DNA from: Candidatus Methanomethylicia archaeon
GTDB lineage: Archaea; Thermoproteota; Methanomethylicia; CALHIW01
Assembly (NCBI GenBank): GCA_038845975.1
Contig: JAWBQF010000029.1
Location: 1 to 35,889, forward strand
Reading direction: 5' to 3'
DNA: 35,889 nt
The notes under the pieces were generated by a model that did no database searches, had not been told where the DNA came from, and was given only the letters and a program-made list of their open reading frames with translations. Position 1 is the stretch's first letter; every line of letters begins with the position of its first letter. The translations under genes were made by a program, and so were the position numbers. Positions 199 through 17,738 of this stretch are shown in pieces.

Positions 199-652
199 TT
201 ATAATATCCCCACCAACCACTCTGCTACATATAGTATTACCTGAAGGTGAACTTAAATCAGGTAGGCTAACATCCAAGAGTTCATTCCAAACAAGTCATC
301 AACATTCTATTATCAGCAGTTAGTAACTAACTAATTACTGGAGTTCTCAGTTAGCTTCTTACTAATTCATGTTCATCGGCTATTTGCATCCAATCCTTCT
401 CTAACCCCATAAATTTACCGATGATCATCTTCAGCACAATCTTAAAGCCATTATAACAAACACAATAAAACTTCAATGAAAAGATAACCTTACAACAATT
501 GATCTGGAGAATAAGAAGAAAAAGCTACTAGACAAAAAGGAATATGCAAACTCCAGTCTAATGCCCGAAAGATGTGGGCTAAGCATTGATCGTCTAGAGA
601 GCATCTTTATGAAATCATTCAGTCAGTTTAGCGACTACCAGTATATTCTATT

Positions 653-993
653 CCTCTAATCATATATTAGGTCCTAGAAATAACTCAAGACGGATAGATG
701 ATTTATTGAAGGGCTTGAGACAAGAGAGTTGTATGCTGACTCCATATACGATACCATAAGAGGTAAGCTATCATATAGAATATTAAGGCAAACATACCTT
801 AAATCCTAGGAATGTAGAAGCCTACAATACGATATCGAGATCTATAGAAGATGATATCAGCTGTTGAGAGATTCTATGGATGGCTTAAAGCTTCAGAAGA
901 ATAAGATATGAGGTGATAGCAATAATATACAAGCACTCATAACAATAGCATGCATAATAGTACATTTAAGATATGGAGTTTGGAGATGAGTTC
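653..993 (+). mobile_element. Degraded IS5-family DDE transposase (C-terminal half) with right TIR
   Basis: Frameshifted peptides ELYADSIYDTI (726-758), NIKANIP, NPRN, SAVERFYGWLK (857-889), FRRIRYE and ALITIACIIVHLRYGVWR* (stop 987-989) fit IS5 transposase motifs. It ends in ggagtttggagatgagttc (975-993), resembling the MITE TIR. A possible eroded left TIR lies near 278-292. Confidence 0.8.
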
Positions 994-1391
994 CCTAATA
1001 AGAGTTAAGGCCATAAACGGCGAAGTGAATATAGGCTTCATAAATCATCCCGAGAGCAATAGAGATCATTTAATAATCAAGCCTCCTAACAGGAGTTACT
1101 ATAGTATTGTAGTTGGGCCTTAGCTTAACATACCTATGATTATATGTCTACTAATCAAAATAGCATTGCTAAGTGTATACTGATATTAGCTCTCCATATA
1201 TTTCTAATCGCTGCTTATCTAGATGGTTCATGAAATAGATTATACACTAATCACTTCCTAAAATATTTAGAAATGAATGATAGGAACTTATAGAAACAGT
1301 ATTAAAGAGTAATAAACACGATTAAGTCTGTAAAGCTTTCAGATTGAGCAAAAACTTAAATTGTTGGAGCTATTTAATATGTGTGGGTTCA

Positions 1392-1799
1392 ATGTTGATT
1401 AAGGACATATTATCAAAACCACCAGTTACAGTTAAATATGGAACATCTCTACATGAAGCTGCTCAAATAATGGTTAGGGAGAATATTGGAATACTGCCAA
1501 TAGTCAACCCTGAGAATCAGCGAAATGTATTGGGGGTGGTTTCTGAAAGAGATTTTGTTAAGGCATTTAGCATACATAAAGAACCTCAGAAAATAAAGGT
1601 TGAGGATGTGGGGACAATGGGAAATATTGTTACTGTAAAGCAGTCAGATACAATATCGAAGGCAGCTCTACTCATGATCCAGCATAACATAAGACATCTC
1701 ATTGTAGTTAATGATGAAAACTTGTTGGTAGGTGTGGTTTCAATAAGGGATATTATAGAAACACAGAAAATACTGGAAATGATTGCGAAAGCATACTAG
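1392..1799 (+). CDS. CBS domain pair protein
   Basis: Two CBS repeats (PPVTV...MVRENIGILPIV...GVVSERD; IVTV...MIQHNIRHLIVV...GVVSIRD). The track's TTG start at 1344 overlaps a BRE/TATA-like aaaaacttaaat, so the start is more likely ATG 1392 or GTG 1383. Confidence 0.9.
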   Translation: MLIKDILSKPPVTVKYGTSLHEAAQIMVRENIGILPIVNPENQRNVLGVVSERDFVKAFSIHKEPQKIKVEDVGTMGNIVTVKQSDTISKAALLMIQHNIRHLIVVNDENLLVGVVSIRDIIETQKILEMIAKAY

Positions 1800-2010
1800 T
1801 ATTTAAGCCCTAGTCAAGGTTAGAGTACTTCAAAGTATTCAGCTCATATAGATAATTTTAAGGCATAATTTAAATGTAAACATAAGATGACCAAGTAATA
1901 ATTTAAAAGTTAAACCATAAGCTAGCATAGAAATAAGGATTAATTGTAAATATATAGTAGACATAACCTAAAAACTTATAAGTTTATAGGTTATTTCTAT
2001 TAGACTCCAG

Positions 2011-2613
2011 ATGGATTTGTATGAGGTTTTCAGTGTAGTAGCGGTAATAGTATCAGTAGCCTCCTCAACATTTAGTCTTGGATATTGGCTAGCGAAAAGA
2101 CTTGGCAATATTGAGCTTGAAATAGGCAGTATTGAATCGAGAATAGGCAGCTTAGAATCGAGAATAAACAGCTTAGAATTGAGAATAAACAGCCTAGAAT
2201 CGAGGATTGGTAGTCTTGAGTCGAGGTTTAGTAGTCTTGAAAGGGCTTTTTATGATTATAATGAGCTTCTTCTTAAGATTCTTGGGTTTAAGGGTATACT
2301 TACATCTACTGAAATAGCTTCACTAATTACTGTTTTAAGAACTGCTCTTCCACATATATCATCAAGATACTATACAAGAGAGGTTATGGAGAGGCTTAAA
2401 CAACTGCTAAGTAAGAATCCTGATGAATATACAATGGATGATGTTAAGGAGATGTGGGAAATATCTGAGATCATGCTTAAAGAATACAGTATCTCAGGAA
2501 GGAAGGATCTCCTAGACTATTCATCAAAACTGAAAATAGCATCCCAACTAATCAAAATATTCTTCGTAGAGCCTAAAATGAAGAAGATGGAGGAATGGCT
2601 ACATAAACTGTAA
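2011..2613 (+). CDS. Membrane-anchored heptad-repeat coiled-coil protein
   Basis: N-terminal hydrophobic helix ending LGYWLAKR, then SLESRI(G/N) heptads and a helical C-terminal domain. TATA-like cttataag lies about 30 nt upstream. Confidence 0.8.
   Translation: MDLYEVFSVVAVIVSVASSTFSLGYWLAKRLGNIELEIGSIESRIGSLESRINSLELRINSLESRIGSLESRFSSLERAFYDYNELLLKILGFKGILTSTEIASLITVLRTALPHISSRYYTREVMERLKQLLSKNPDEYTMDDVKEMWEISEIMLKEYSISGRKDLLDYSSKLKIASQLIKIFFVEPKMKKMEEWLHKL
2122..2247 (+). repeat. Six in-frame 21-bp tandem repeats encoding heptads
   Basis: ataggcagtattgaatcgaga / ataggcagcttagaatcgaga / ataaacagcttagaattgaga / ataaacagcctagaatcgagg / attggtagtcttgagtcgagg / tttagtagtcttgaaagggct. Confidence 0.9.
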
Positions 2614-2700
2614 ACTAATCTTACAATGAAACCCGACAAGAAAGCCTACGGTTTTAACTCTAGGATAAATGGCCATATAAACTTAGGCATTTCTGAATCT

Positions 2701-2842
2701 CCATTTATTCATTTAGTGTATGCTATTGACTTTAGTGGTTATCATGAATCCATCACATTCATCCTAACATGGTATGTAGTTATCAACATCCTAGTTTAAC
2801 ATACGCAACTCTCCATCAATCTTAACTCTACAATTATATAGC
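2701..2842 (+). repeat. Degenerate dispersed repeat, copy 1 (partial)
   Basis: Colinear with the reverse complement of 4878-5040: exact tgtatgctattgactt (2717-2732 = rc 5009-5024), plus catt(c/t)atcct, ggtat(g/a)tagttatc and ctctccat blocks. Confidence 0.7.
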
Positions 2843-2921
2843 TTTTAGTATCTTATAGCTTTTAACATTCAGCTCATCAGTAAGTATTATTACGTATTTC
2901 TCCAATTATCATACTCATATA

Positions 2922-3578
2922 TTAAGCTCCATACCATGTAAGTCCTACTTTCTCTTTTATCCTTTCAATTTCCCTTCAATCTTCTTAAACCTCTCATCAA
3001 TAAGAGCCTTCAAATCCCTCTAAGCTTTCTTATCTCAATCAAGATCATATCTTGCCTTTCAAGCATTAAATCTGCTTCTCAATAATCTTTCCCTGCCCCT
3101 TGTTAAGCCTAATCCTGCATCCACTATTTTTGCTAGTTACTCTACTGCTAGGCTTCTATGGTATCCATCCATATCCATAACTTTATCGTTATAGTCGTAG
3201 ACATCCATTCCCTCAACTATAGCATGTTTTGGATAGTTTTCCTTTATGAACTCTAGGGCGTGTCTAAAAATTCCTTTAGCCCCATCAAACCTGAGGCCCC
3301 ACATTTCAGTCCTAAGTCCTCTAATCCATCCTAAGGCATGGAAGAAGATGTGGCTTTCCATGGAGGTAGGCAATTTTTGGACACGCCCATGAACTCTATA
3401 AATCTTTTAACTATCCTCCCCCTTAACAAGAACTTTAACATCTTTACCTAGATTCCTAGCTTGAAATCCAATCAATCTTAAAGCCTCATAGTATGGAAAT
3501 AGTCAGTAACAACTTCCTGAACCTTAGGACCCTTAACCGAAATCTTCTTCCTAACTACAAAGCTTTAGCTACTCCCAT
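2922..3578 (-). pseudogene. Acylphosphatase-domain plus C-terminal coiled-coil pseudogene, interrupted by a MITE
   Basis: Broken frames read VRKKISVKGPKVQEV...IGFQARNLGKDVKVLVKGE...RFIEFIKENYPKHAIVE...YHRSLAVE*LAKIVDAGL...DLKALIDERFKKIE. Several stops and frameshifts. The track ORF 3137-3373 is a MITE/pseudogene chimera. Confidence 0.75.
3256..3388. mobile_element. 133-bp MITE with 17-bp TIRs and a 10-bp target-site duplication
   Basis: Left TIR gggcgtgtctaaaaatt; right TIR aatttttggacacgccc (1 mismatch). Exact direct repeat atgaactcta at 3246-3255 and 3389-3398. Confidence 0.95.
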
Positions 3579-3975
3579 AATATAAAGTTTTCAATCAATA
3601 TGACTTGTAGAAACACTATAAATTAATAATCAATTCTGATGTAATCTTAAAATATTAAGCTTTCATAACCTATCCTTTATTAACACGTGGCTATATGGTT
3701 TAACATTACTTCTATCCTTCACACATTATATTGCTTTCTGAATGTCGAGCAATGCATTAAATCCTCTATTGCCGACTCCATTCTTTATAGCTTTTACATT
3801 GTATGGTGTATGCTTCCCCTATTCCTAGAGTTTACGGTTAGTTATCTTCTAAACCAGCTTAGTTAAAATAGTATAATCCATACGGCTAACATGCTCTAAT
3901 TATGGTAGACTATGGAATTTCAATATATAAGCTTAAGATATGTATACATGCGAGCTGGAATGGATTGGTATGGTT

Positions 3976-4344
3976 TTAGAATGCTCCTGTAAGCTTTAGA
4001 AGTATAGTTATTAGGGTAGCCATAACCGTCGCCCACATACCAACTATTAATCCAATAATCCATTTAAGCACGCCATCAATTCTCCTATCCACCTCGTTAA
4101 GCATATAATCAATCCTTCTATTTACCTCATCAATCCTCTTACTTACCTCGCCAATCCTCTTATCGATATATTCTTTCAGCTCCTTTACATCATCTTTCGT
4201 CACCATCTCCCTAGATAAAGCTATTAGTATTATTCTTCTTAAGTTCCTATCCCTAATAATTTCGGGAATAAGCTCTCTTGAAAGCTCTACACGAATCCCC
4301 TCATCCCTCTTCAACTCTTCAAGAAGCTGCCTACCAATAGACAT
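3976..4344 (-). CDS. Coiled-coil protein with C-terminal transmembrane helix (paREP15/DUF1640-like architecture)
   Basis: VTKDDVKEL motif, RI(G/D)EV heptads and a hydrophobic tail WIIGLIVGMWATVMATLITILL. Confidence 0.75.
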   Translation of the reverse strand: MSIGRQLLEELKRDEGIRVELSRELIPEIIRDRNLRRIILIALSREMVTKDDVKELKEYIDKRIGEVSKRIDEVNRRIDYMLNEVDRRIDGVLKWIIGLIVGMWATVMATLITILLKLTGAF

Positions 4345-4776
4345 AATAAACCAATACAGAACATCTTAAAAGCTTTACTATTCTAAGACCTTCTTGAAAT
4401 CCAACCTTATTTAAGAGTTGCTCTTATTATAGTTAAGTTTATTGAGGAATATTTATATTGATTATCTATGGTCTTATATATTTCCATCATTCAGGATGCT
4501 GTTACTCTATATGCTAAGTTATGTATATTCTTAACTTTATGATAAGAATTATTTAGACTCTACGGAAACTTAACAATAATGTTTATCCTCATCCTAATGG
4601 CTTACTTAATGGAAAGTTTAGAGAGATAGATACTTAGTTTAAATATATAAAAGATAGATTTTGGTTAAGTATTAGTAATTTATATAACTTCTACTTTACG
4701 GTTTAATTATGGGTATTCATCAAGCCGCATCAACCCATCTACTACATGTTAAGCTATAAACGTTAAATTTTATTAT

Positions 4777-4867
4777 GAACTCATCTGAAAATTCTCAATA
4801 CTCAATCGACTAGTCGTCTTAACCTACTAAAGCCTCAAGAGCGACTAAGGAGTTTTCAGACGAGTTC
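4777..4867. mobile_element. 91-bp MITE, IS5-like TIR family (diverged copy)
   Basis: TIRs gaactcatctgaaaattc and gagttttcagacgagttc. The internal ttaaccta..aag.ct.aa...taagg aligns with the copies at 20322 and 24097. Confidence 0.9.
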
Positions 4868-4877
4868 AAAATTAAAA

Positions 4878-5121
4878 CATGAATTGTATAGTTTAGAGGT
4901 TAGAATTAATGGAGAGAATAATACAGTTAAGGATAGAACTAAACTATTCGATAACTATATACCGTGCATGAGGATAAATGCGGTAATGAGCATGCATTAA
5001 TGCTTATGAAGTCAATAGCATACATACTAAACAAACATGGATTAACAGGAAAATAAAAGCTAAGAATTCATAGAAGATACAATACCAAAATAGAGGTGAT
5101 AAAACATGCTTAAGTTAACAA
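4878..5121 (-). repeat. Degenerate dispersed repeat, copy 2 (probably an eroded small gene read on the + strand)
   Basis: The reverse complement aligns colinearly with 28457-28660 and 2701-2842. Residual + strand peptides include LMERIIQLRIELNYSITIYRA and ALMLMKSIAYILNKHGLTGK. Confidence 0.7.
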
Positions 5122-5948
5122 AGCCTTTGAATATGTCCTGTCAACTTTAGATTTTCTCAGGGCTTCTTAATAGGGAAGCTACCGTTAGATCGCGAAGAAG
5201 GGAAGTTCTCAAGAGGGTGAAGGGCAAATGACGTTTATTATAGGAATAGTGTAATTATTGCAAGTGATAGAAAGCTATACTGGAATCTTAACCTCTAACG
5301 GAACCTTATTCCTCTCAAAACTCCAAAATCCCACCAACCCCTAATACTAGCATAAACAGTAATAACAGAATTTATATAACTTCTTAAGTTGCCACGTCCC
5401 ATCCTAATTCAGTTTACTACTTTAAACTTCAATATTCTACATCTCCGCAACCATAAGAGTTACATAGTTAGTATTAGTAATGGATTTACTTTAAAGTTTT
5501 ACACTTCATATTATTATGAATCTCAATATTTTATCCTCTAATAATCTATAATGACTATAGTTGCGTTGAAGGATCAACACATAAACGGTCAGCTATAGGG
5601 CCTGGAACTCCTGAGGCTATTAATTGTGTTTTAAACCATTTCCTTAATACATGTGGATGTAAACTATAATATTTACCGTTTTCCTAGAAAACGTTTTAAA
5701 AGCATTTCTAAGTAGGAAGTTTAGGTTTTGAAGTGTCATTGATGATCCATTACTACATGCTATTACAGGCGAATCATCACTTATCATTTCCCCTCCCCTA
5801 ACTTCTTAATGGAAGTAATAACTTATTTTCCATAAGTTATTTCTCCGAGCATAAATTTAAACTAAAAATTAAAAGAAAACTTTTAGTTAGTTAGTCTTAC
5901 TGTTAGAAGCAGTGATGGATTGAATGGTAGAAATCTTGATATAGGTAA

Positions 5949-5962
5949 TAAAGTATTTAAGA
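5949..5962 (+). promoter_or_regulatory. BRE/TATA promoter of moeA
   Basis: taaagtatttaaga starts 34 nt before the ATG. The identical 14-mer lies 33 nt before the ATG at 9573. Confidence 0.7.
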
Positions 5963-5982
5963 CTAGAAAATCATAGCAACAT

Positions 5983-7974
5983 ATGTTAAATTCATCTAGT
6001 GAAAGAAAGCTCTTCCATGTATTAACAAGTATTGGGGAAGTTGAGGGGGAATTAGTAAAACATTTATGCTTGAAGCCTCTAGGTATTGAGGATGTTGATC
6101 TTGAAAATGCTTTAGGTAGAATTTTAGCTGAGGATATTTACGCTCCTATAGATTATCCCTCATTTGATAGAGCTGAAGTTGATGGTTATGCTGTTAGAGC
6201 TGAGGATACTTATGGAGTTGATGAGGAGCATCCGGTAAGATTAAGAGTTACTGGAGTGATAGGTGTAGGGGAAGCTGCAGGAGGGGAAGTGAATAGTGGA
6301 GAGGCAATAGAAGTAGCTACAGGAGCTATTATTCCTAGGGGAGCAAACTCAGTAGTTATGGAGGAGTATACTCAGAGAATTGATGGAGAAATTCTAGTAT
6401 ATAGAGCAGTATATCCGGGAGAGAATATTGCAACTACAGCTTCGGATATCTCTATGGGTGACTTAATTCTTAGAAAAGGAATTCTCCTTAAGCCTCATGA
6501 TATAGGTTTAATTGCTTCTCTAGGTATTGGTAGTATTAAGGTTTACCGTAAAGTTAAGGTAGCTATATTCTCTACAGGTAGTGAAGTTGTAAAGCCTGGA
6601 TTAAAAACATCTTTAGGCCAAGTATATGACGTTAACAGTTATATCCTCCTATCCTCTCTTAAAGAACTTGGAGTAGAAGTAAGGTATGCTGGCCATCTGC
6701 CAGATAACTATGGGGAAGTAAGAAGGAAGATAGAGGAAATCCTGAAGTATAGTGATGTAGTAATAACTTCAGGAGGAACATCAGCTGGCTTAGGGGATTT
6801 AATATATAGAGTATTTGACGATATTGGAGAGCCCGGAGTTATCATTCACGGTCTTAAAGTTAAGCCTGGAAAACCTACAGTTATAGCAGTGGCTAAAGGG
6901 AAGCTATTAATAGGTATGCCCGGATTTCCCATGTCATGTACAATGGTATTCCATAAAGTGGTTAAGCCAATAATAGCTAAGCTTCAAGGATTAAGACTAG
7001 CTAGTGAGGAAACAGTTAAGGCTAAGATACCATATAGACTTAGAGTTGGAGGTGGGAAAGCATGGCTAATACCGGTAAGTATTATTAAATCCACGCAGGA
7101 ATTACTCTGCTACCCATTATCTTTAAGTTCAGGATCCGTCTCAGCTCTAAGCTATGCTGACGGCTATTTACATGTACCTGAGAATAAGGAGATACTGGAA
7201 GAGTATGAGCTTGTTGATATCCACTTATTTAGTAGTAAGCTAAGAATTGCTCAACTGGTCTTCATAGGTAGTCACGATATAGCTTTAAGTAGAATTCTAG
7301 GATATTGGGGGTTAATAGATGAATGTAAAATAATACCTACAGGCTCTCTTAGAGGATGGTATGCAGTAATCAATGGGGAAGCAGATATAGCTCCAACCCA
7401 TTTACTACATGAGGAAACAGGAGAATATAATACACCATACCTAGAAAAACTTAAAGCCAAAGATGTAGCTGTCCTTGTAAGAGGATATGCTAGAAGAATA
7501 GGATTCATAGTTCCTAGAGGAAACCCTAAAGGAATAGTAGAATTTAGGGATCTAGCTAGAAATGATGTATCAATAGTTAATAGAGTTAAAGGATCCGGAA
7601 TAAGAACCTATATAGATATTGAACTTAAAAAATTAGCTAGCAATATAAATGTAAACTTTAAAGAGTTAACAAGCAGAATTAGAGGATACACATACGAGGT
7701 TAAAACTCATACAGCAGTTGCAGCAGCAGTAGCTCAAGGTAGAGCAGATACAGGTATTACTGTTGAAATAGCTGCTGAAATGTACAATCTAGATTTCATA
7801 CCGTTAACAGAGGAAATAGTTGACTTCCTAATTAGGAAAGATAGACTTAGAAAAGAAACAGTTAATAAATTCATAAACCTACTTAAAACTGAAGAAACCT
7901 ATAAGTTAATAAAAGAAATAAAGGGCTATAAACCACTACCTGAAACTGGAGAAATCATACATGAAAAACAATAA
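5983..7974 (+). CDS. moeA: Molybdopterin molybdenumtransferase MoeA fused to a C-terminal PBP/LysR-type substrate-binding domain
   Basis: PSFDRAEVDGYAV, STGSE, DVNS, TSGGTSAG, KPGKP and GMPGFP motifs, then the PBP domain (GSHD, GSLRG, THLL, NRVKGSGIR, THTAVAAAV). Confidence 0.95.
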   Translation: MLNSSSERKLFHVLTSIGEVEGELVKHLCLKPLGIEDVDLENALGRILAEDIYAPIDYPSFDRAEVDGYAVRAEDTYGVDEEHPVRLRVTGVIGVGEAAGGEVNSGEAIEVATGAIIPRGANSVVMEEYTQRIDGEILVYRAVYPGENIATTASDISMGDLILRKGILLKPHDIGLIASLGIGSIKVYRKVKVAIFSTGSEVVKPGLKTSLGQVYDVNSYILLSSLKELGVEVRYAGHLPDNYGEVRRKIEEILKYSDVVITSGGTSAGLGDLIYRVFDDIGEPGVIIHGLKVKPGKPTVIAVAKGKLLIGMPGFPMSCTMVFHKVVKPIIAKLQGLRLASEETVKAKIPYRLRVGGGKAWLIPVSIIKSTQELLCYPLSLSSGSVSALSYADGYLHVPENKEILEEYELVDIHLFSSKLRIAQLVFIGSHDIALSRILGYWGLIDECKIIPTGSLRGWYAVINGEADIAPTHLLHEETGEYNTPYLEKLKAKDVAVLVRGYARRIGFIVPRGNPKGIVEFRDLARNDVSIVNRVKGSGIRTYIDIELKKLASNINVNFKELTSRIRGYTYEVKTHTAVAAAVAQGRADTGITVEIAAEMYNLDFIPLTEEIVDFLIRKDRLRKETVNKFINLLKTEETYKLIKEIKGYKPLPETGEIIHEKQ

Positions 7975-8492
7975 TCTCAATACTACATAATCACTAGAAA
8001 ATACTTTAAAATATCTAGAATAGTTCCCAGCAATCTTGACGATATACTAGGATCACATAGTCTTACAGTAATTCATCTCAATAAGCTTAAGAATATAACT
8101 AGGAATCTACTTACTTCTAAGCATTCAAAACCATCAACACCAACATTCTAACAGTAGGAGAATAATCTATACAAATACTAGTGATGGGGAAAATGGAGTA
8201 TTAGTCTTAAAAATAAACTGAAGCCACAACTCTACTTAATACAGTTTAACTATATGCTACTTATTAAGTTCTTCCATACCTTTCCTTATAACTTCATTGT
8301 TAAATGTTCTTAAATTAATTTAAATACGGAACATATATAAATTCTAGGTTACTCATCACCAAGTAGCATGAAGACTACATCAATAACTCAAACAATATTA
8401 GAACGCAGTAACTTAGCATATTGTAGCTTTCTTCTTAAGCTAGGGTCTCAGCATCATACATAAATATTTATTTTTAGATGATTAGTATAGCT

Positions 8493-9326
8493 ATGGGTAG
8501 ATTTTGTGTTGAATGCGGTGTTGAGGAATCTGTAAATACACCATTATTTAATAATCTATGTTTAAAATGCTTATTAGAAACTCATGATTTATTTGAAGTT
8601 AGAAAGAAAATAGTAGTACATGTATGCCGTAAATGTAGCTCTATTAAAGCTGGTAATAAATGGGTTAAAGCTGATAACATAGTGGAGATTCATAATCTAA
8701 TGAATAATATTTTAACTAAAAACATTAAGTCAATGTTAGGAATTGAAATAGTAGATATATCTTTAAAACCACTAGAAACATATAGTTCAGTATTAGAAGT
8801 TGAAGTTAGAGCATTAATTAGCAATAATTTAATTAGTAAAATATTAAGAGTGAATATAGAATGGATAAAGGATATTTGCTCTTCATGTTTAAAGCGAAGT
8901 TCTAGAAGCTATGAAGCAGTAGTTCAAGTCAGAGCCTTCAATTACGATGACGAAATTAAAGAATTTAAGAATACATTAATACATGCATTTCAAGATAATA
9001 TACTTGAAATCAATGAGCTTAATAAAGGATACGATATAAAAGTACTTAATGTACATACAGCCCAACAAATAGTTGATGAAATACGTAAAAAATGGATAGT
9101 TAAAACAGTTAGATCATATGAGAAGCAGTACAGAAATAGAGAAGGACGTAGAAGAGGAAAACCATACATATCAGTAAGAATTATAAATTTAAAATCTGGA
9201 AATCGCTTAATAATCAATAGTAAGGCATATATAGTAAGCTCAATAATGAATAACTCCATAACGTTAAGAAATAGTTCAGGTGAAGAGAAAACATTAAAGA
9301 TAAGGGAACTAGTAAAACTATTATAA
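8493..9326 (+). CDS. nmd3: NMD3-family ribosome biogenesis protein
   Basis: Four CxxC motifs (CVEC, CLKC, CRKC, CSSC), YEAVVQVR and ISVRI. The TATA position favours ATG 8493 over the track start at 8478. Confidence 0.85.
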   Translation: MGRFCVECGVEESVNTPLFNNLCLKCLLETHDLFEVRKKIVVHVCRKCSSIKAGNKWVKADNIVEIHNLMNNILTKNIKSMLGIEIVDISLKPLETYSSVLEVEVRALISNNLISKILRVNIEWIKDICSSCLKRSSRSYEAVVQVRAFNYDDEIKEFKNTLIHAFQDNILEINELNKGYDIKVLNVHTAQQIVDEIRKKWIVKTVRSYEKQYRNREGRRRGKPYISVRIINLKSGNRLIINSKAYIVSSIMNNSITLRNSSGEEKTLKIRELVKLL

Positions 9327-11583: not shown

Positions 11584-12633
11584 TTATGCTTTATATAGCT
11601 TCCTCCTTAACCAAAAAGCTAGATTTACCAGGCTTATCATTACTGGAACTTCTATTAATGGTCCTATAACCGTAGCGAATGCCTCCTTAGATGCTAATCC
11701 AAATATTGAAACAGCAACAGCTATAGCTAGTTCAAAGTTATTACTTGCAGCTGTAAATGCAAGCGTTGCAGTTCTTTGATAGTCAAGTTTGAAGCAATAT
11801 CCTAAAATGAATGATACTAAGAACATTATAACGAAGTATAGTAGTAATGGAGTAGCAACCCTAACCACATCAAGAGGTAGTGTAACTATATATTCACCTT
11901 TAAGAGAAAACATTATTATTATTGTAAATAAAAGAGCAAAGAGGGAAGTTGGGCTTAGCTTAAGCATAAACTTCTCATCATACCATACTCTCCCCATCCT
12001 TCTAATAAGATAGAATCTAGTTAACATCCCTCCGAAAAACGGTACTCCTAAGTAAATAGCTACTGATTGAGCTACATTCAATACTGAAACTTGAATAACA
12101 AACTCTTCACCTGAAAGCTGTGAGCTAAGTATGGTTATAAAGAAGTAGGCTAAAACAGAATATGTAGCTATCTGGAAAATAGAGTTTAAAGCTACAAGTA
12201 TTGCTGCCCATTCATTATCTCCATCAGCAAGACTATTCCATACAATCACCATAGCTATACACCTAGCTAAACCTATAAGTATCACCCCAGTCCTAAAGCC
12301 TGGATAATCAGCTAGAAACATCCAAGCAAGTAAAAACATTAGAAAAGGTCCAATTACCCAGTTTTGAACAATAGATAGGGAAATCATTGCTCTAGATCCA
12401 CCTGCAGTAATAATCTTTCTAAGCTCTTCATACCTAACCTTTGCAAGAGGTGGATACATCATCCATATAAGACCAATAGCTATAGGAATGGATGTTGTAC
12501 CAATACTTAAAGAGCCAATAATACTAGCAACCTCAGGGAAAACATATCCTAAACCAATACCGAGCATCATAGCTAAGAAAATCCAGAGGGTAAGAAACCT
12601 AGTTAATACCGGTAATTTTTCCTCCTTATCCAT
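11584..12633 (-). CDS. acr3: ACR3-family arsenite efflux transporter
   Basis: [49 protein letters not shown] and GPLIEVP motifs. Confidence 0.97.
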
Positions 12634-12665
12634 GAAGGTCTCTAATTCTTAAAGAAACCTACTAA

Positions 12666-12690
12666 TAAACATTATGTTACAAACTGCAAC
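12666..12690 (-). promoter_or_regulatory. acr3 promoter: TATA edge plus palindromic site GTTACA-N3-TGCAAC
   Basis: The + strand reads taaac-attat-gttacaaactgcaac. Same layout at 14635 and 16485. Confidence 0.8.
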
Positions 12691-13228
12691 TTCATCTAAC
12701 ATGGATAAAGTAAAGTTAGTAAACATAGCGATTTAATTGAGCTTATTAAAAAGACTCTTCATTTTCCTGATTGTAAAATCTTCTGAAAGATCCTGTAAAA
12801 ATACTGGAATTGACTGCTTGAGGGATGCCAATAATAGCTATAGAGGAGGATTATCTAATTTCATATTCATCATGTATAGTTAAAACCATTAAGAAAGCTT
12901 ACAACCAAACAGATTCTCTTGAAAAGCTAAAGCCAGTAGAAAGCATATTATAGAGAATGAAAGTTCAAAGCAATTCATACATTATTTGCTTCATTATCAT
13001 TCTAATAAGTATTAACTCTCTAAATCCTATTATTACACATAAACCATTATGCTAATCAATGGAAGTATATGCAGCTTCAAGAATTGAATAGATACTCCGG
13101 AGGTAATTATGAAGGAAACAAGTAGGGATAGTATTTTGGATGAGGCTATAATCCTTTCTGGAATGCTCAATACCTCTGCCATAGAAGAATCTACGCTAGT
13201 TACAACATTAAATAAAAATTTATTTAAT

Positions 13229-14323
13229 TTATCTCCAAATAGTGTTTCCAGCTATGTATGCAGTTGCTGTTGAGATAGCTATTGTTACTAATACGTATAC
13301 TGTAGCCCTTCTTAACCCAAATACTTTAACTATTGCAAGCCAGTTTGGTAGGCTTTCTCCAGGTCCTGCTAATAGTAGACCTAGAGCTGGACCCCTCCCC
13401 ATACCTAAACTTGTAAGCATCTTTACAAATGGAGCTTCAGTCATAGTGGCGAAGTAGGATAATGCACCGATCAACGTAGCTAGGAAACATGAAAGTATTG
13501 ATGAGCCACCTAAATAAGACTCAATAACCTCTCTAGGCAGTAGCTTACCTATAACACCAACTATAAATACACCTACTAGTAATAGTGGAAATATCATTTT
13601 TACAAACCATAGACTCTCATGAAGCCAGGAATATATTTCATCCCTACTAAACAACTTATATGCATAGATTAGTGTAGCTATAAGTAGGATTAGGAATACT
13701 TCAATCTTGAAGATGTACGGATTACCTAAATAAATGCTTTCTGGAAGAAGTTTATGTATGGATAATCCCCCAAGATAGTTTGGAGCCAAAAGAGTTATTG
13801 CTAGTAGAATTATGAGGATGAGACTTCTAGACTCTATTACTTTACTCTTAACTACCAGTGAGGATGTCTTACTGCTTCTAGTTAACTCTTCTCTTCTAAA
13901 TATTGAAACCATAGTTAATCCAACTATGGCTGCTGTTAAGATTGCAGATATGAATCGCATAATAGCCATATCTAAACCTAGAATTGCACCAGTATATGTT
14001 AATGCTAGTATATTTGCTGCTGGTGTAACCCATAGGATAATGAATGCTGGACCAATACTGCTTCCCTTCTTATAAAGTCCTGAAACAATAGGTATAACAG
14101 TACATGAACATGCAGCTATGAATGTACCTGTAACTGAGGCTAATGGAAAAGATATATATTTCCTACTCTCAACACCGAGATATCTTATAATAACATCTCT
14201 TGAAAGGAAGCTTACAATAGCACCTGCTAAAAGAAATGCAGGTATTAGACACGTTAATACATGGTATGCAATATAGTCTATAAGAGCTTCTAAGCCTCCA
14301 AGCACTACTTCAACTAAATCCAT
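13229..14323 (-). CDS. DUF318/ArsP-family permease
   Basis: HVLTCLIPAFLLAGAI, ACSCTVIP, GPAFIILW..PAAN, YFATMTE and GPALGLLLAGP motifs; multi-TM. Confidence 0.9.
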   Translation of the reverse strand: MDLVEVVLGGLEALIDYIAYHVLTCLIPAFLLAGAIVSFLSRDVIIRYLGVESRKYISFPLASVTGTFIAACSCTVIPIVSGLYKKGSSIGPAFIILWVTPAANILALTYTGAILGLDMAIMRFISAILTAAIVGLTMVSIFRREELTRSSKTSSLVVKSKVIESRSLILIILLAITLLAPNYLGGLSIHKLLPESIYLGNPYIFKIEVFLILLIATLIYAYKLFSRDEIYSWLHESLWFVKMIFPLLLVGVFIVGVIGKLLPREVIESYLGGSSILSCFLATLIGALSYFATMTEAPFVKMLTSLGMGRGPALGLLLAGPGESLPNWLAIVKVFGLRRATVYVLVTIAISTATAYIAGNTIWR

Positions 14324-14330
14324 TCTATAA

Positions 14331-14600
14331 TCATCCTAAAATAGACTTTAATAGGCTTTCAACTTCACTTGGAGATGGAACCTTACCCTTAATTTTCACA
14401 TCTCCATTTACAGCTATAGATGGAGATATTAAAACACCATACTTATCTACAATTTCATCAGACATTATATTCTTTTTAATAACTTCAACTCTATCCTTCA
14501 AGCCAAGCTTCTCCACAACATCATTTACAGTTTTTAATACTGTCTTACACTTCATACAGGGCGGCTCAACACCTATAACTTCAATTAATACCTTAGACAT
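14331..14600 (-). CDS. Small thioredoxin-like redox-active disulfide protein
   Basis: PPCMKC CxxC and YGVLISPSIAVNG...GKVP. Ends 7 nt before the permease start. Confidence 0.9.
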   Translation of the reverse strand: MSKVLIEVIGVEPPCMKCKTVLKTVNDVVEKLGLKDRVEVIKKNIMSDEIVDKYGVLISPSIAVNGDVKIKGKVPSPSEVESLLKSILG

Positions 14601-14634
14601 ATTGTCACCACAAGTTACAAAAGCTACCTATAAA

Positions 14635-14659
14635 TAAACTTTTTGTTACAGTTTGAAAC
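14635..14659 (-). promoter_or_regulatory. Thioredoxin-permease promoter: TATA edge plus palindromic site GTTACA-N3-TGAAAC
   Basis: taaac-ttttt-gttacagtttgaaac, with an extra half-site gttaca at 14613-14618. Confidence 0.8.
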
Positions 14660-14831
14660 CATACCATTCAATATTTTACCAGTTAATCAAGCTAAACTCC
14701 ATCAGGGTTCCTGCTTAACAATTCCATGAGTCTGTTGAGAACTGTAGAATTAAGCTAAATAAGATGCTTCATCTATATCATGTATTTTAGCGGTTAATAA
14801 ATACATTAACAAGAAATAAAGAGTGTTTATA

Positions 14832-14943
14832 GAAGTCATTGCAAAACTCTACTACCAAGGTTTAACTGGTTTAATTCTACATGAGAATAGTATTGTAAAA
14901 AGATTGTTAACATACTTAAATTCTGAAGTTTTGCAATGAGTTC
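14832..14943. mobile_element. 112-bp MITE with 17-bp TIRs and a TA/TATA target duplication
   Basis: tata|gaagtcattgcaaaact ... agttttgcaatgagttc|tata (1 mismatch). The TIR is related to gaactcatctgaaaactc. Confidence 0.85.
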
Positions 14944-14949
14944 TATAGG

Positions 14950-15285
14950 TTAAATATTGATTATTACCTCTGAGCTTCTAATAAGTTTTAAGGCTTCATC
15001 CTCATCTATAGTCTTAACTATCTCCACTATTTCAATCGGTTCTACACCTCTACTTACTAATGATGATTTATAAGCGTAAACTCTAGCTTCAGGATATAGA
15101 CTGTAAATACAGTCCTCAACTGAAGGCATATTTAATCCTTTCTGACCTCTAATAGCACAATACACTCCATCATCGATTAAAATTATGTTTACCTCCACCT
15201 CACCTACGATTCCAAGTGTAATATAGAATCCATCTACTACCCTACTTGATGGTGGTTTAGAAATAACTATAAGTATTTTAACCAA
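14950..15285 (-). CDS. DsrF/TusC-like sulfur-relay protein
   Basis: ILIVISKPP, IILIDDGVY..IRGQ and SLVSRG. Overlaps the stop of the DsrE-like gene. Confidence 0.75.
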   Translation of the reverse strand: MVKILIVISKPPSSRVVDGFYITLGIVGEVEVNIILIDDGVYCAIRGQKGLNMPSVEDCIYSLYPEARVYAYKSSLVSRGVEPIEIVEIVKTIDEDEALKLIRSSEVIINI

Positions 15286-15643
15286 TACTTAACACCTTAT
15301 TTGAAGATTTCAACCATGCAGCTAAGTCACTAAATCCAATTATAGCTACCTTCTCGTTAATCTCTCTAGCTCTAAGATTACTATCTATGTATCCTCTAGC
15401 AATAGCACATTGAGCACAAACCCCTACTTCAACTCCTCTACTAATAAGCTTCTCTAGAAGATCTTTAAATCTAGGATCATTTACTCTAGAAATACCTACA
15501 GCCTCGCTGTAAAGGAAAATTCTCACTAGGTATCCCTTATCTACAACTTTATTAGCTAATTTAAGAGCAATAGAGGCATTTTGGCTTTCAGGGGAGGCTG
15601 AAAGTAGTATTATTAGCTGTCTAGATAAAGACAACTTTATCAC
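15278..15643 (-). CDS. DsrE/TusD-like sulfurtransferase
   Basis: IFLYSEAV, and VCAQCAIARG carrying the Cys at the TusD/DsrE persulfide position. Confidence 0.85.
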   Translation of the reverse strand: MIKLSLSRQLIILLSASPESQNASIALKLANKVVDKGYLVRIFLYSEAVGISRVNDPRFKDLLEKLISRGVEVGVCAQCAIARGYIDSNLRAREINEKVAIIGFSDLAAWLKSSNKVLSIG

Positions 15644-15887
15644 ACCACTCCATTAAGTCCCAAACTAACCTATCGTAGAACTCCTCACTTGACAATCCAT
15701 CAGCCTTAACTCCTCTCATCTCTAAATCATTTCTACACGCAGTGAAGAAGGGTATTCTAACCATCTTAATATTGTATACTCCATCCCCTACAAGATATAT
15801 TTTAAGCTCACATTCATTAATCAATTTTAAAATAAGCTTTGAAAAATCTCCATTCAGTATTCTTGAAACTATGAGTAGATACTTCAC
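15621..15887 (-). CDS. DsrH/TusB-like sulfur-relay protein
   Basis: YLVGDGVY and DLEMRG motifs. Likely start is the GTG at 15887 overlapping the upstream TAG (track start 15899). Confidence 0.75.
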   Translation of the reverse strand: MKYLLIVSRILNGDFSKLILKLINECELKIYLVGDGVYNIKMVRIPFFTACRNDLEMRGVKADGLSSEEFYDRLVWDLMEWCDKVVFI

Positions 15888-16459
15888 TAGATTTCCCATC
15901 CAAGTGATTTAAGTACTCTATCACCAATCCATTCTTTAAGCTCATTAATCCTGCTTTTAAGCTCTCCCCTTAATGGTTTACATAGTGAAAGCTTTAATTC
16001 ACCATTAAGTACTTTAACAGCGAAAGCCATACATGTAGCTTCACCGCAAAGCTTACAGTTTGTTTTTGGAAGATACTTATAGAGTTGGAGAGCTGTAAGC
16101 CTCTTCCTAGCATTAATCTCGTTTTGGCTTGGCATACCAGATCTTCTAAAATCCATTTCAGCCTCAACAATAAGTTTCTTAACCCTATCAAGAATTTCTC
16201 TAGCCTCATTAATATCTAAAGTATATGTTACACCAACTTTACCTGAGGGGAATATTGTTGTTAATCTATCCCATAGCTTAAGTGTTAAGGCTCCACTACT
16301 CTCATCATAAACTACAAGTCCAGGTGGAAACTTGAAAGATAATACAATTATTAATTCACGTGAAAACTCCATATTTGCCTGAGCTACAAATCTTATCCTA
16401 CTAGGATCCTTAATACACGGCATAACCTCCTTAATCTCGAAGCTTAAATTTTCAAACAT
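15887..16459 (-). CDS. (Fe-S)-binding protein with a C-terminal AcsC/RnfB-type 4Fe-4S domain
   Basis: LPKTNCKLCGEATCMAFA...LCKPL and N-terminal PCIKDP. The track start at 16483 lies inside the TATA box, so ATG 16459 is preferred. Confidence 0.88.
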   Translation of the reverse strand: MFENLSFEIKEVMPCIKDPSRIRFVAQANMEFSRELIIVLSFKFPPGLVVYDESSGALTLKLWDRLTTIFPSGKVGVTYTLDINEAREILDRVKKLIVEAEMDFRRSGMPSQNEINARKRLTALQLYKYLPKTNCKLCGEATCMAFAVKVLNGELKLSLCKPLRGELKSRINELKEWIGDRVLKSLGWEI

Positions 16460-16484
16460 GAAAGCATTGAAGACCAAGATCATA

Positions 16485-16509
16485 TAAACTTAACGTTACA
16501 GTTTGTAAT
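16485..16509 (-). promoter_or_regulatory. Fe-S/dsrHEF-like operon promoter: TATA edge plus palindromic site GTTACA-N3-TGTAAT
   Basis: taaac-ttaac-gttacagtttgtaat. Confidence 0.8.
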
Positions 16510-16914
16510 CTAACATGTGGAAGTAGAGTTTAGAATTTATGACTGATTAAGCCTATAAGTAGAGACATTTAGCTATAGCTCTATAATATTCATCCCCAAT
16601 TAAATTCATTATGTTCTCCATTATACATTATTGACAATAATAATATTTAAGATTTGCCAATCATAACCTAGCTTAATAAGTTGGAAATTTTAATTTTTAC
16701 CTAGGTTTCATCAAGCTGAGTTCTAGCCGTATTAGTTCAGATTCACTATAATTATATAGCCTACTTGCTGAAACACTTACTTCAACTTGAAACTGTATTT
16801 CTTCAGACATGAAGACTACATATAAACGAAATGTCTAACGAAATATGGAAACAATATTAAACTTGCAATATTCCATAGTTTAAGCTTTATGTAAGTTTAT
16901 TAGATATTACAGTT

Positions 16915-17490
16915 CTATCTTTTAATTTCCTTATAGTATTTTGTTGATGGACATCCAATACATTTATCCTCAATGTAGGCTGAACATGTTTTACACTTCA
17001 TACCGCAGGGTGTATTTTCAAGATTTCTCTCTGTAATTATTCTGAATGGAATGTATTTAGGTATTTTAGGTGTACTTGTAATATATACTTCAGCTCTTCT
17101 AATCCCCTTAAAATTTCTAATAGCACATATTGAGATTACGTTTTCAAGTACATCCTGATTCTCAGCAACCATAATAGCTATGAAATTATATCCTGCAACC
17201 ATTGGTGCTAGAAAAACTATTCTTGGACATTTCTCAAATGTTTTAAGAAGAAGTTGAAGAGAATCGTAATCCTGAACATCTCCGAAAATAGTTGCAAACT
17301 TTAACTCTAAAACTTTAGGATTAATTAAAGCTGAAAACTTCAAGATGTTTTCCCTCTCAATCTTCTTCAACCTCTTCAATACTGCAACATGACTTACGTT
17401 AAGCATCCTACCGATACTACTAATAGAAACTCTACCATCATCTTGAAGTATCTTTATAATTTTAATATCTACATCGTCAAGTCTAACCAT
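16915..17490 (-). CDS. Lrp/AsnC-family transcriptional regulator with a Cys-rich C-terminal tail
   Basis: LDDVDIKIIKILQDDGR HTH, a RAM-like domain, and the tail CGMKCKTC-x7-CIGCP. Confidence 0.92.
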   Translation of the reverse strand: MVRLDDVDIKIIKILQDDGRVSISSIGRMLNVSHVAVLKRLKKIERENILKFSALINPKVLELKFATIFGDVQDYDSLQLLLKTFEKCPRIVFLAPMVAGYNFIAIMVAENQDVLENVISICAIRNFKGIRRAEVYITSTPKIPKYIPFRIITERNLENTPCGMKCKTCSAYIEDKCIGCPSTKYYKEIKR

Positions 17491-17738
17491 AAAATGTAAC
17501 TTAAAAAGCAGTATATAAATCTAATATGTAACAATATAGGCTTAGCCTAATATGAAATCAGTATACTAAAATACATATTGGAATCCACATCATAGCTTAA
17601 CTCTTAATTGCTTGAAGCTGGAATTGATGAGTTTCTTAGATTAGTAAGTATAGAATAGGAAGTTTACGTGAGAACACATCTAGGTGTATATATCATAGTA
17701 ATAGTTAACTTGGGAAGCAGGCATGGATCATGTAAGTG

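Follow-up and report, generated by a model that had tools for sequence, protein, structure and literature searches.

A 35,889-nt stretch of contig JAWBQF010000029.1 of a Candidatus Methanomethylicia archaeon (the whole stretch is hereafter called the window) contains a cluster of eight genes in which two arsenical exporters stand beside a set of sulfur-relay-like proteins, and this cluster is the subject of the present analysis. A sequence-only reading of the window had described eight same-strand genes forming four units, and our family scans confirmed both the arrangement and the gene identities: all eight genes lie on the minus strand between positions 11584 and 17490 (Table 1). The units are lrp, which encodes an Lrp/AsnC-type protein with a helix-turn-helix (HTH) domain; the gene for an Fe-S protein followed by dsrH-, dsrE- and dsrF-like genes; a thioredoxin-permease pair; and acr3. 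The division into four transcription units is based on the overlapping or abutting arrangement of the four Fe-S/Dsr open reading frames (ORFs) and on the gap of only 7 nt between the thioredoxin and permease genes. Between the units lie spacers that are rich in AT (GC content about 29-30%) and unusually long, at 349-595 nt (12634-13228, 14601-14949 and 16460-16914, the last of which measures 455 nt when counted to the ATG at 16459). Remnants of arsR or arsC pseudogenes were sought in them and rejected, as phmmer matched none of their 31 stop-to-stop frames (30 aa or longer) to the ORFs of the 80 related loci described below.

Table 1. Genes and sequence features of the cluster, with positions in the window
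Feature	Position	Strand	Evidence or remark
Lrp/AsnC-type HTH protein, Cys-rich C-terminal tail	16915..17490	-	PF13404, E 3.5e-12; PF13412, E 8.6e-9
PF04060 Fe-S protein	ORF 15887-16483; likely gene 15887..16459	-	PF04060, E 3.5e-14
DsrH/TusB-like subunit	15621..15899	-	TIGR03011, E 0.0074 (below cut-off); alignment A6 with 18 neighbours of Fe-S genes
DsrE-family subunit, invariant CxxC	15278..15643	-	PF02635, E 1.6e-15
DsrF/TusC-like subunit	14950..15285	-	TIGR03010 (TusC), E 3.9e-5, below cut-off
ArsE-like thioredoxin-fold protein, CMKC (Thioredoxin_3 / MTH895-ArsE family)	14331..14600	-	PF13192, E 1.3e-14
ArsP_1 (DUF318) permease, C-S-C motif	13229..14323	-	PF03773, E 1.1e-72
Acr3 arsenite efflux permease	11584..12633	-	TIGR00832 equivalog, 424.5 bits (cut-off 282.8)
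lrp promoter	17520..17554	-	two CATATTAG(R) boxes, 17546-17554 and 17520-17528, upstream of TTTATATA
Operator copy 1, TTACAAACTGTAAC	16495..16508	-	6 nt upstream of TTTATATG box, Fe-S/Dsr operon; D2 block 16484-16508
CATGTTAGA box	16509-16517		abuts operator copy 1
Operator copy 2, TTTCAAACTGTAAC	14645..14658	-	6 nt upstream of TTTATTTATA box, thioredoxin-permease unit; D2 block 14634-14658
Operator copy 3, TTACAAACTGCAAC	12677..12690	+ (inverted)	in register, 6 nt upstream of TTTATTAG box, acr3; D2 block 12665-12689
CATGTTAGA box	12695-12703		near operator copy 3, acr3 promoter
Long hairpin	14828..14947	-	21-nt arms, 95% complementary, 78-nt loop

The absence of arsR, arsC and arsM from the window, which had also been stated from the sequence alone, was upheld: HTH_5, LMWPc/ArsC and methyltransferase families were unmatched among the 31 ORFs scanned against Pfam. 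These comprised 29 of the 48 ORFs of at least 70 aa plus two shorter ones, the remaining 19 being nested within, or antisense to, longer ORFs. Among the same 31 ORFs, we found no TauE, sulfide:quinone oxidoreductase (SQR) or persulfide dioxygenase, and no TusA (PF01206), TusE/DsrC (PF04358) or MnmA-type gene; ArsA and ArsD were likewise not found in the window. The cluster resembles the classical ars operons (ArsR-Acr3/ArsB-ArsC) in having an Acr3 that passes the equivalog model, whereas it differs from them in lacking ArsR, ArsC, ArsA and ArsD, in having an Lrp/AsnC-type protein as the regulator candidate and in containing a sulfur-relay-like operon under the same operator as the exporters.

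The cysteine of the R-C-I-A-M-V stretch of Acr3, which we take to be essential, is kept in 90% of 21 aligned rows. In the ArsP_1 permease, the cysteines of the CSC motif are present in 82% of 17 rows, and in the ArsE-like thioredoxin those of the CxxC motif are present in 100% and 88% of 25 rows, respectively; the latter protein scores 55 bits against TIGR00412 ('MTH895/ArsE family'), below the cut-off of 62. The permease with its vicinal cysteines adjoins the PF13192 CxxC protein, and this pair recurs in the surveyed loci. A pair of this kind is already known, since the ArsP-ArsE operon of P. mercurii ND132, in which a PF13192 ArsE lies next to ArsP and which is reported as arsenic-up-regulated in the part of the preprint that concerns it (bioRxiv 10.1101/2022.10.17.512643), matches the thioredoxin-permease unit. 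The window permease differs from the ArsE/ArsP organoarsenical pair in scoring far below the cut-offs of the SaoE and SO_0444 models.

The shared operator and its candidate regulator

The promoters of the Fe-S/Dsr, thioredoxin-permease and acr3 units contain a common 25-nt block (family D2), inside which lies a 5-N3-5 palindrome, TTRCA-N3-TGTAA, as the operator core. A TATA-like box, TTTAT, follows every copy at an identical distance of 6 nt, and the 13-nt core is inverted in the acr3 promoter. A shared operator had been proposed for the cluster, and the counts agree with that proposal: with a 14-mer taken from the window itself and at most one mismatch allowed, the 35.9 kb contains three sites, all of them in unit promoters, where 0.03 would be expected; a count of three was not reached in any of 100 shuffled sequences. 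The recurrence of one promoter's 14-mer at two further promoters in identical register is an outcome that chance rarely gives. When up to three mismatches were allowed, the 14-mer gave nine matches in the window against 5.97 expected, which is uninformative.

A second sequence, CATRTTAGR, was rejected as a statistically supported motif, because its five matches compare with 2.65 expected and 14 of 100 shuffles reached five. Four of the five window matches are located in cluster promoters, upstream in the Fe-S and acr3 promoters and twice before lrp, and this placement alone is suggestive. The Fe-S/Dsr promoter also bears on the start of the first gene. The first ATG of the Fe-S ORF (16483) falls within the TATA-like box (16481-16488), and the next in-frame start, the ATG at 16459, gives a 190-aa form that is the same as the protein-database entry. 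Judged by the usual distance between TATA box and start in archaea, an Fe-S/Dsr transcript that starts at this ATG would be leaderless.

The Lrp/AsnC-type protein is the candidate regulator standing in for ArsR. Seven cysteines (C88, C122, C162, C166, C169, C177 and C180) are invariant in this protein and ten homologues; two of them belong to the effector domain and five to a tail with the pattern P-C-G-x-x-C-x-x-C-x-x-Y-x4-C-x-G-C-P-x-T-x-x-Y. In the AlphaFold2 (AF2) model, the mean predicted local distance difference test (pLDDT) value is 67.3 and that of the tail is 41-54; the effector domain has the beta-alpha-beta-beta-alpha-beta order at moderate pLDDT, and PF01037 was matched only in homologues. 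The protein thus has an AsnC-type HTH and, in the model, a RAM-type domain order in common with the Lrp/AsnC (FFRP) regulators, and differs from them in its five-cysteine tail, which is unmatched in Pfam, and in two further invariant cysteines. Assignment of the tail to the DUF3795 domain was tried and rejected, as three tails gave no Pfam match at E <=10. The protein-database form has 181 aa (100% identity, 95% coverage), and the annotated start thus differs from the first ATG of the ORF.

The 5-N3-5 palindrome resembles the sites of archaeal Lrp-family members such as FL11 and Ss-LrpB. In the neighbourhood survey described below, Lrp homologues with the same tail adjoin a short Fe-S gene in six of the eight loci with a window-type Lrp (L007, L021, L025, L030, L040 and L053), and those beside HTH-less Fe-S genes often occur together with TauE; L040 contains Acr3 and ArsC as well. 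No arsenic-responsive member of the Lrp/AsnC family was found in the literature searched.

The Fe-S protein and the DsrE/F/H-like subunits

The Fe-S protein belongs to a large family. A profile search of 1.84 billion representative sequences yielded 2412 relatives at E <=1e-3, 873 at <=1e-10 and 84 at <=1e-30, and a word-indexed search found 16 relatives of the Fe-S protein, three of the DsrE-like subunit and seven of the Lrp protein; the metagenome-contig relatives of the cluster proteins are 69-81% identical. The ESM Atlas contained PF04060 clusters only, mostly archaeal, and nothing further.

The AF2 model of the Fe-S protein, built from an alignment of 74 sequences, has a pLDDT of 95.5. 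In Foldseek searches of the PDB, the C-terminal 53 columns corresponded to the [4Fe-4S] domain of corrinoid iron-sulfur protein (CFeSP; 2ycl_A, 43% identity), and the N-terminal ~85 columns resembled single repeats of the TATA-binding protein (TBP) with a root-mean-square deviation of 2.6-3.1 A and a probability of mostly 1.0 (0.89-1.00), at E values of only 0.01-0.3. The Pfam TBP model was matched below its cut-off (E 0.049, marginal, for the window protein and E 8.6e-4 for its relative P0049). The model suggests a TBP-like domain at the N-terminus, followed by a [4Fe-4S] domain of the CFeSP type. The four cluster cysteines (C135, C138, C143 and C160) are invariant in the 74 sequences, a likeness to the N-terminal domain of CFeSP and to RnfB (PF04060), and C15, on the first strand of the putative TBP-like fold, is almost invariant. 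The arrangement differs from that of CFeSP and RnfB, because the cluster domain is here C-terminal to a single TBP-like domain and a corrinoid or Rnf context is absent. A paper on TBP domains (PMC3597702) appears not to describe an Fe-S-linked family, since the words iron and cysteine are absent from the portion of its text that we searched.

Most relatives have 170-210 aa. The forms of Methanothrix and Methanosarcinales are longer (265-283 aa) and contain an N-terminal ArsR-type HTH: HTH_5 was matched by all of the ten long-form N-termini tested (E 1.7e-7 to 4.1e-3), seven of them at or above the 22-bit cut-off. The window protein, by contrast with these and with the ArsR/SmtB metalloregulators, has no HTH_5 domain in Pfam. 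The name given to the family by JGI for three of the 16 relatives found by the word-indexed search is 'ArsR family metal-binding transcriptional regulator'. In P0096 (582 aa), the Fe-S module and a class-V aminotransferase of the cysteine-desulfurase type (330.9 bits) form one fused protein, and in Acetoanaerobium noterae (L081 5717-7501) the Fe-S gene lies 25 nt downstream of a gene for such an enzyme. The HTH fusion speaks for sensing no less than for redox supply, and the fusion with, and adjacency to, cysteine desulfurase point to persulfide trafficking. Six other members, P0049, P0051, P0052, P0061 and P0082 (369-384 aa) and P0050 (341 aa), have an N-terminal extension of ~160-205 residues without any Pfam match.

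The three small genes downstream of the Fe-S gene had been labelled as DsrEFH/TusBCD. What stands of this label is the three-subunit set: as in DsrEFH of A. vinosum (2hy5) and TusBCD of E. coli (2d1p), three small paralogous DsrE-fold subunits are encoded together, and such triads are present in 22 of the surveyed loci. For the DsrE-like subunit, the label needs qualification. A C-x-x-C-A-x-A-R-G motif (C76 and C79) is invariant across 21 DsrE-like sequences, and among solved structures this subunit is closest in sequence to E. coli YchN (1jx7, E 1.6e-12), where CKTC is aligned within the same C-x-x-C-x-x-x-R-G stretch; DsrE of A. vinosum (2hy5, E 2.5e-10) and TusD of E. coli (2d1p, E 1.6e-6) come next. 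The latter two have C-V-A-A at this place, so that C76 of the window protein aligns with their single cysteine, presumably the persulfide-carrying active site, whereas the second invariant cysteine, C79, is absent from both. None of the subunits reaches a Tus/Dsr equivalog cut-off (29.3 against 89.25 bits for TIGR03012, 23.6 against 94.15 for TIGR03010 and 16.4 against 49.2 for TIGR03011).

YchN is reportedly a functionally uncharacterised homohexamer encoded by a single gene, whereas the present set has three distinct subunits and an Fe-S partner. No treatment of YchN together with DsrE was found in the literature searched. A passage in a 2026 review (PMC13188914) mentions a DsrE-like selenoprotein with UxxC, which by analogy fits a redox-active pair better than a simple persulfide carrier. 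The JGI label for a 69%-identical relative of the DsrE-like subunit is 'TusD component'; in the word-indexed collection, two other clusters with such a relative were found, only at 69%. The DsrF-like alignment (A5, 19 sequences) and the DsrH-like alignment (A6) contain no invariant cysteine. The DsrH-like protein itself has no Pfam match, and it owes its name to alignment A6, in which several of the 18 aligned neighbours of Fe-S genes match PF04077.

A four-chain prediction of DsrE, DsrF and DsrH with the Fe-S partner scored 0.46 (best control, 0.19); the runs agreed in at least 60% of contacts, and the partner had a pLDDT of 86. Of 157 solved complexes, 116 attained the mark used for such predictions, as did two of 215 mismatched pairs; at scores of 0.60 or less, only 18 of the 157 solved complexes did so, together with both passing mismatches. 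The model thus weakly supports binding of the Fe-S protein to DsrE, DsrF and DsrH.

Gene neighbourhoods in related genomes

Species-representative genomes were scanned with the Fe-S alignment as the seed, and the best 80 of the loci of 452 relatives were examined. Their ORFs were searched with the window proteins and iterated profiles, and 237 neighbour ORFs of 20 loci were compared with Pfam. The closest surveyed Fe-S relative is at most 47% identical to the window protein, and the window's own lineage is therefore outside the survey set.

The most frequent neighbour families were ArsR-type HTH (24 of the 80 loci), DsrE/F/H (22), Acr3 (19), Thioredoxin_3 (18), ArsP_1 (15) and TauE/SafE (14), followed by ArsM-like methyltransferase (nine), DUF166 and window-type Lrp (eight each) and LMWPc, which is ArsC-like (seven). 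All of these families thin out with distance from the Fe-S gene. DsrE/F/H genes always adjoin it, 66 of 68 matches lying within 1.5 kb, and the Acr3 matches number 10, 5, 4, 0 and 1 in the bins 0-1.5, 1.5-3, 3-4.5, 4.5-6 and 6-8 kb. At least one Acr3, ArsP, ArsC or ArsM-like gene is present within 4.5 kb in 35 loci. Linkage of DsrE/F/H to ars genes in relatives, on which the sequence-only reading depended, was found: such a gene lies within 4.5 kb in 14 of the 22 loci with DsrE/F/H.

The Fe-S and DsrE/F/H set recurs beside acr3, arsP/arsE, arsC, arsM and arsR in two distant methanogen lineages. In Methanothrix, the order is Acr3, the Fe-S protein fused to the ArsR-type HTH, DsrE, DsrF and DsrH. 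In Methanobacteriaceae, where the Fe-S protein is HTH-less, the order is ArsM, DGC, DUF166, DsrE, DsrF, Fe-S and DsrH, and in locus L014 it is extended on one strand to ArsM, ArsR, DGC, ArsC, DUF166, DsrE, DsrF, Fe-S and DsrH. Loci L009 and L031 have the order DsrH, DsrE, DsrF, Fe-S, ArsP and thioredoxin. The methyltransferase of L015 passes the arsenite methyltransferase model NF008823 (317 bits, cut-off 263), and the Acr3 of L070 scores 446 bits.

In a quick maximum-likelihood tree of 74 Fe-S proteins, the members linked to DsrE/F/H fall into three separate groups, namely the window plus three relatives from metagenomes (support 100), Methanobacteriaceae (support 99) and Methanothrix with Methanosarcinales (support 100). 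The DsrE/F/H label changes three times on this tree, at least two of these changes being forced by well-supported branches, against a mean of 13.7 for shuffled labels, none of 500 shuffles being as low. This distribution over three clades implies that the linkage of DsrE/F/H with the Fe-S gene is not one inherited block. The link of the sulfur relay to ars genes is real and conserved.

Several further arrangements were observed. In L031, from a metagenome-assembled genome (MAG) of Methanobacteriaceae (457-8904), two Fe-S/Dsr modules flank a full ars operon containing ArsP, thioredoxin, ArsR, DGC, ArsC, DUF166 and Acr3; in the second of these modules, DsrE is a 79-aa fragment, and the module seems to have undergone some degradation. 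DUF166 is directly upstream of the DsrE-like gene in loci of the Methanobacteriaceae type (L008, L014, L015, L017, L018, L024, L026 and L031) and, in L031, is also located between ArsC and Acr3. It scores weakly against the DfsP '(seleno)protein' model and looks like another uncharacterised gene of ars islands. A second recurrent context, without DsrE/F/H, is a TauE/SafE-type exporter beside an HTH-less Fe-S gene, often together with a homologue of the Cys-rich Lrp protein (L007, L021, L022, L032 and L040). DsrC lies beside the Fe-S gene in L037 and L064, and both of these loci lack DsrE/F/H. The ArsP_1 ORF of L037 (6001-7290) extends to 429 aa, and its tail matches a Cas12f1-like TNB domain (E 1e-6); this extension may be a TnpB-type relic or an ORF run-through.

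Within the window, the cluster is flanked by housekeeping genes (Dph2, amidohydrolase, M24 peptidase and tRNA synthetases), and no Rfam family at the gathering score and no tRNA gene was found. The long hairpin begins 3 nt past the stop codon of the dsrF-like gene. The minus-strand fold of 14822-14953 has a free energy of -30.6 kcal/mol (z -4.88), and none of 200 shuffles was as stable; the hairpin could be a terminator, a small RNA or a relic of a mobile element. On the plus strand at 5983-7974, a MoeA molybdopterin molybdenumtransferase is fused with a PBP-like solute-binding domain.

Possible roles of the sulfur-relay-like module

The statement with the best support is that the cluster is a four-unit regulon related to arsenic, with the Fe-S/DsrE/F/H set as a functional component of ars clusters in archaea. 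We regard it as likely that the four units form one arsenic-related regulon. On balance, we favour reading the region as one co-regulated arsenic-detoxification regulon of a low-GC archaeon, in which a sulfur-relay-like thiol module has been recruited beside two arsenical exporters. That the Dsr/Fe-S module acts in arsenic handling appears somewhat better than an even chance, and it is doubtful that its substrate would be specifically thio-arsenic species. Sulfur trafficking probably has a role in arsenic detoxification, because the operator is shared and the same pairing occurs in distant methanogens.

In the mechanism that we propose for this regulon, the Cys-rich Lrp/AsnC protein would bind the palindrome, sense As(III) or As-S species via its seven invariant cysteines and replace ArsR. 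The DsrE(CxxC), DsrF and DsrH subunits would form a TusBCD-like hexamer, in which the CxxC would carry or resolve sulfane sulfur or an As-S adduct, and the TBP-like/[4Fe-4S] protein would dock on this hexamer as an electron conduit or a cluster-based sensor. Arsenite and a thiol-reactive or thiolated arsenical would then exit through Acr3 and the ArsE/ArsP-like pair. Sulfane-sulfur chemistry is suggested by the recurring company that the Fe-S module keeps with persulfide proteins (cysteine desulfurase, DsrC and DsrE/F/H), redox by the invariant CxxC together with the ferredoxin-type cluster domain, and sensing by the fusion with the ArsR-type HTH. All three clues would be compatible with a relay in which As-S species are formed or resolved ahead of export, as one of several readings; the thioarsenic chemistry of the module is an inference. 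The most specific form of the proposal seems rather unlikely: the CxxC-type DsrE/F/H hexamer and its TBP-like/[4Fe-4S] partner would constitute a new type of arsenic-transforming enzyme system, an Fe-S-driven thiol/persulfide relay that makes or breaks As-S bonds and is conserved in the ars islands of archaea between methanogens and thermophilic Thermoproteota-like lineages; in the window, a new Cys-rich arsenic sensor of the Lrp type would control it in place of ArsR. The bonds in question would be those of thioarsenate, thioarsenite or As-persulfide adducts, handled before export.

Several points weigh against the arsenic regulon. The operator count is partly circular because the pattern was derived from the same window, the lrp promoter has only a half-site and not the full palindrome, and the case for the Lrp protein as the putative palindrome binder draws only on its position at the head of the cluster and on the architecture of archaeal Lrp-family sites. 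The survey, having the Fe-S protein as its seed, sampled DsrE/F/H sets only where an Fe-S gene is present, and covered 80 of the 452 loci. None of the listed neighbour families was found in 23 of the 80 loci, including L050 (a Sulfolobales MAG) and L055 (Desulfurococcaceae), in which the Fe-S gene is among housekeeping genes. Within 4.5 kb, eight of the 22 loci with DsrE/F/H show no Acr3, ArsP, ArsC or ArsM-like gene; these eight include two ~3-kb contigs and four loci that have only DUF166, either alone or together with DGC. Since L014 and L031 carry ArsC together with the module, the module is not simply a substitute for ArsC. Finally, TauE/SafE, DsbD, DsrC and cysteine desulfurase are further partners of the Fe-S family, links that a general sulfur or thiol stress fits as well as arsenic does. 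The ArsR-family neighbours could be sensors of persulfide rather than of arsenic; BigR-type models gave scores below their cut-offs on them.

These last links are the ground for the strongest alternative, to which we give a small but appreciable chance, namely that the Fe-S/DsrHEF unit maintains the homeostasis of reactive sulfur (sulfide, persulfide or sulfite), shares a thiol-stress regulator and a neighbourhood with the exporters and never handles arsenic. Besides TauE/SafE, DsbD, DsrC and the cysteine desulfurase fused or adjacent to the Fe-S module, the neighbours include rhodanese together with glutaredoxin and ferredoxin-thioredoxin reductase, and in 45 of the 80 loci the nearest 4.5 kb are free of Acr3, ArsP, ArsC and ArsM-like genes. 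The cst operon of S. aureus is said to combine a persulfide-sensing repressor with TauE and a DsrE-domain sulfurtransferase. However, the operator of the Fe-S/Dsr unit is found in the window before a full-score acr3 and before the ArsE/ArsP-like pair as well, TauE, SQR and persulfide dioxygenase genes were not found there, and in methanogens the module is embedded in one-strand operons with ArsM, ArsC and Acr3.

A slighter chance is given to a sulfur-free role, in which DsrE(CxxC), DsrF and DsrH would be a dithiol As(III) chaperone or an arsenate reductase feeding Acr3 or ArsP, and the Fe-S protein would be only the sensor half of a split ArsR-like regulator. The invariant CxxC with the conserved arginine after it, and the lack of ArsC among the genes found in the window, are in line with such a role, as are the ArsR-type HTH on all of the long forms tested from Methanothrix and Methanosarcinales and the position of the fused gene between acr3 and dsrE in those genomes. 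The co-occurrence of ArsC with the module in L014 and L031 argues against it, and the fusion or adjacency of the Fe-S module to cysteine desulfurase and DsrC points instead to sulfur transfer. The HTH-less Fe-S gene of Methanobacteriaceae, which lies between dsrF and dsrH, is more subunit- than regulator-like, although this is not decisive.

It is very improbable that DsrE/F/H is a housekeeping relay of the TusBCD type (for tRNA thiolation or cofactor sulfur) that lies beside ars genes by accident, since the weak matches to the TusB, TusC and TusD models and the JGI 'TusD component' name are outweighed by equivalog scores far below all cut-offs, the CxxC in place of a single cysteine, the lack of TusA, TusE/DsrC and MnmA-type genes among those found in the window, the operator in common with acr3 and the recurrence of the ars linkage in three clades. 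The module differs from DsrEFH/TusBCD also in the TBP-like/[4Fe-4S] protein, which is always co-encoded in our Fe-S-seeded survey, and in its context of ars genes rather than of dsr or tRNA-modification genes.

In sulfidic hot springs, paddy soils and aquifers, arsenic is present predominantly as thioarsenic species. In the literature searched, which covered few subscription journals, a DsrE/F/H-type module in ars clusters, the Fe-S family and an arsenic-linked Lrp are undescribed. In the sections that bear on the subject of the nearest paper found, PMC6620896, DsrE/F-like genes of Thioalkalivibrio, 'whose roles are still unclear', change expression under arsenite, and enzymes for thioarsenic handling are only hypothesised. 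For Crenarchaeota genomes, a passage in PMC5461723 gives the arsenite pump gene (arsB) as the sole ars-operon enzyme gene found, with ArsC, ArsA and ArsD absent.

For the question of how thioarsenic species are handled, the module described here offers, inside archaeal ars clusters, a concrete and clonable target consisting of four small soluble proteins, with the CxxC of the DsrE-like subunit as a mutational handle, and the Cys-rich Lrp regulator with its predicted operator is directly testable. The combination of a TBP-like domain with a [4Fe-4S] domain, either free or fused to the ArsR-type HTH, would represent a new sensor architecture, and the set hints at what the YchN-like CxxC branch of the DsrE family might do. 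In methanogens, where the module is found beside arsM, it may bear on the methylation and thiolation of arsenic in rice soils.

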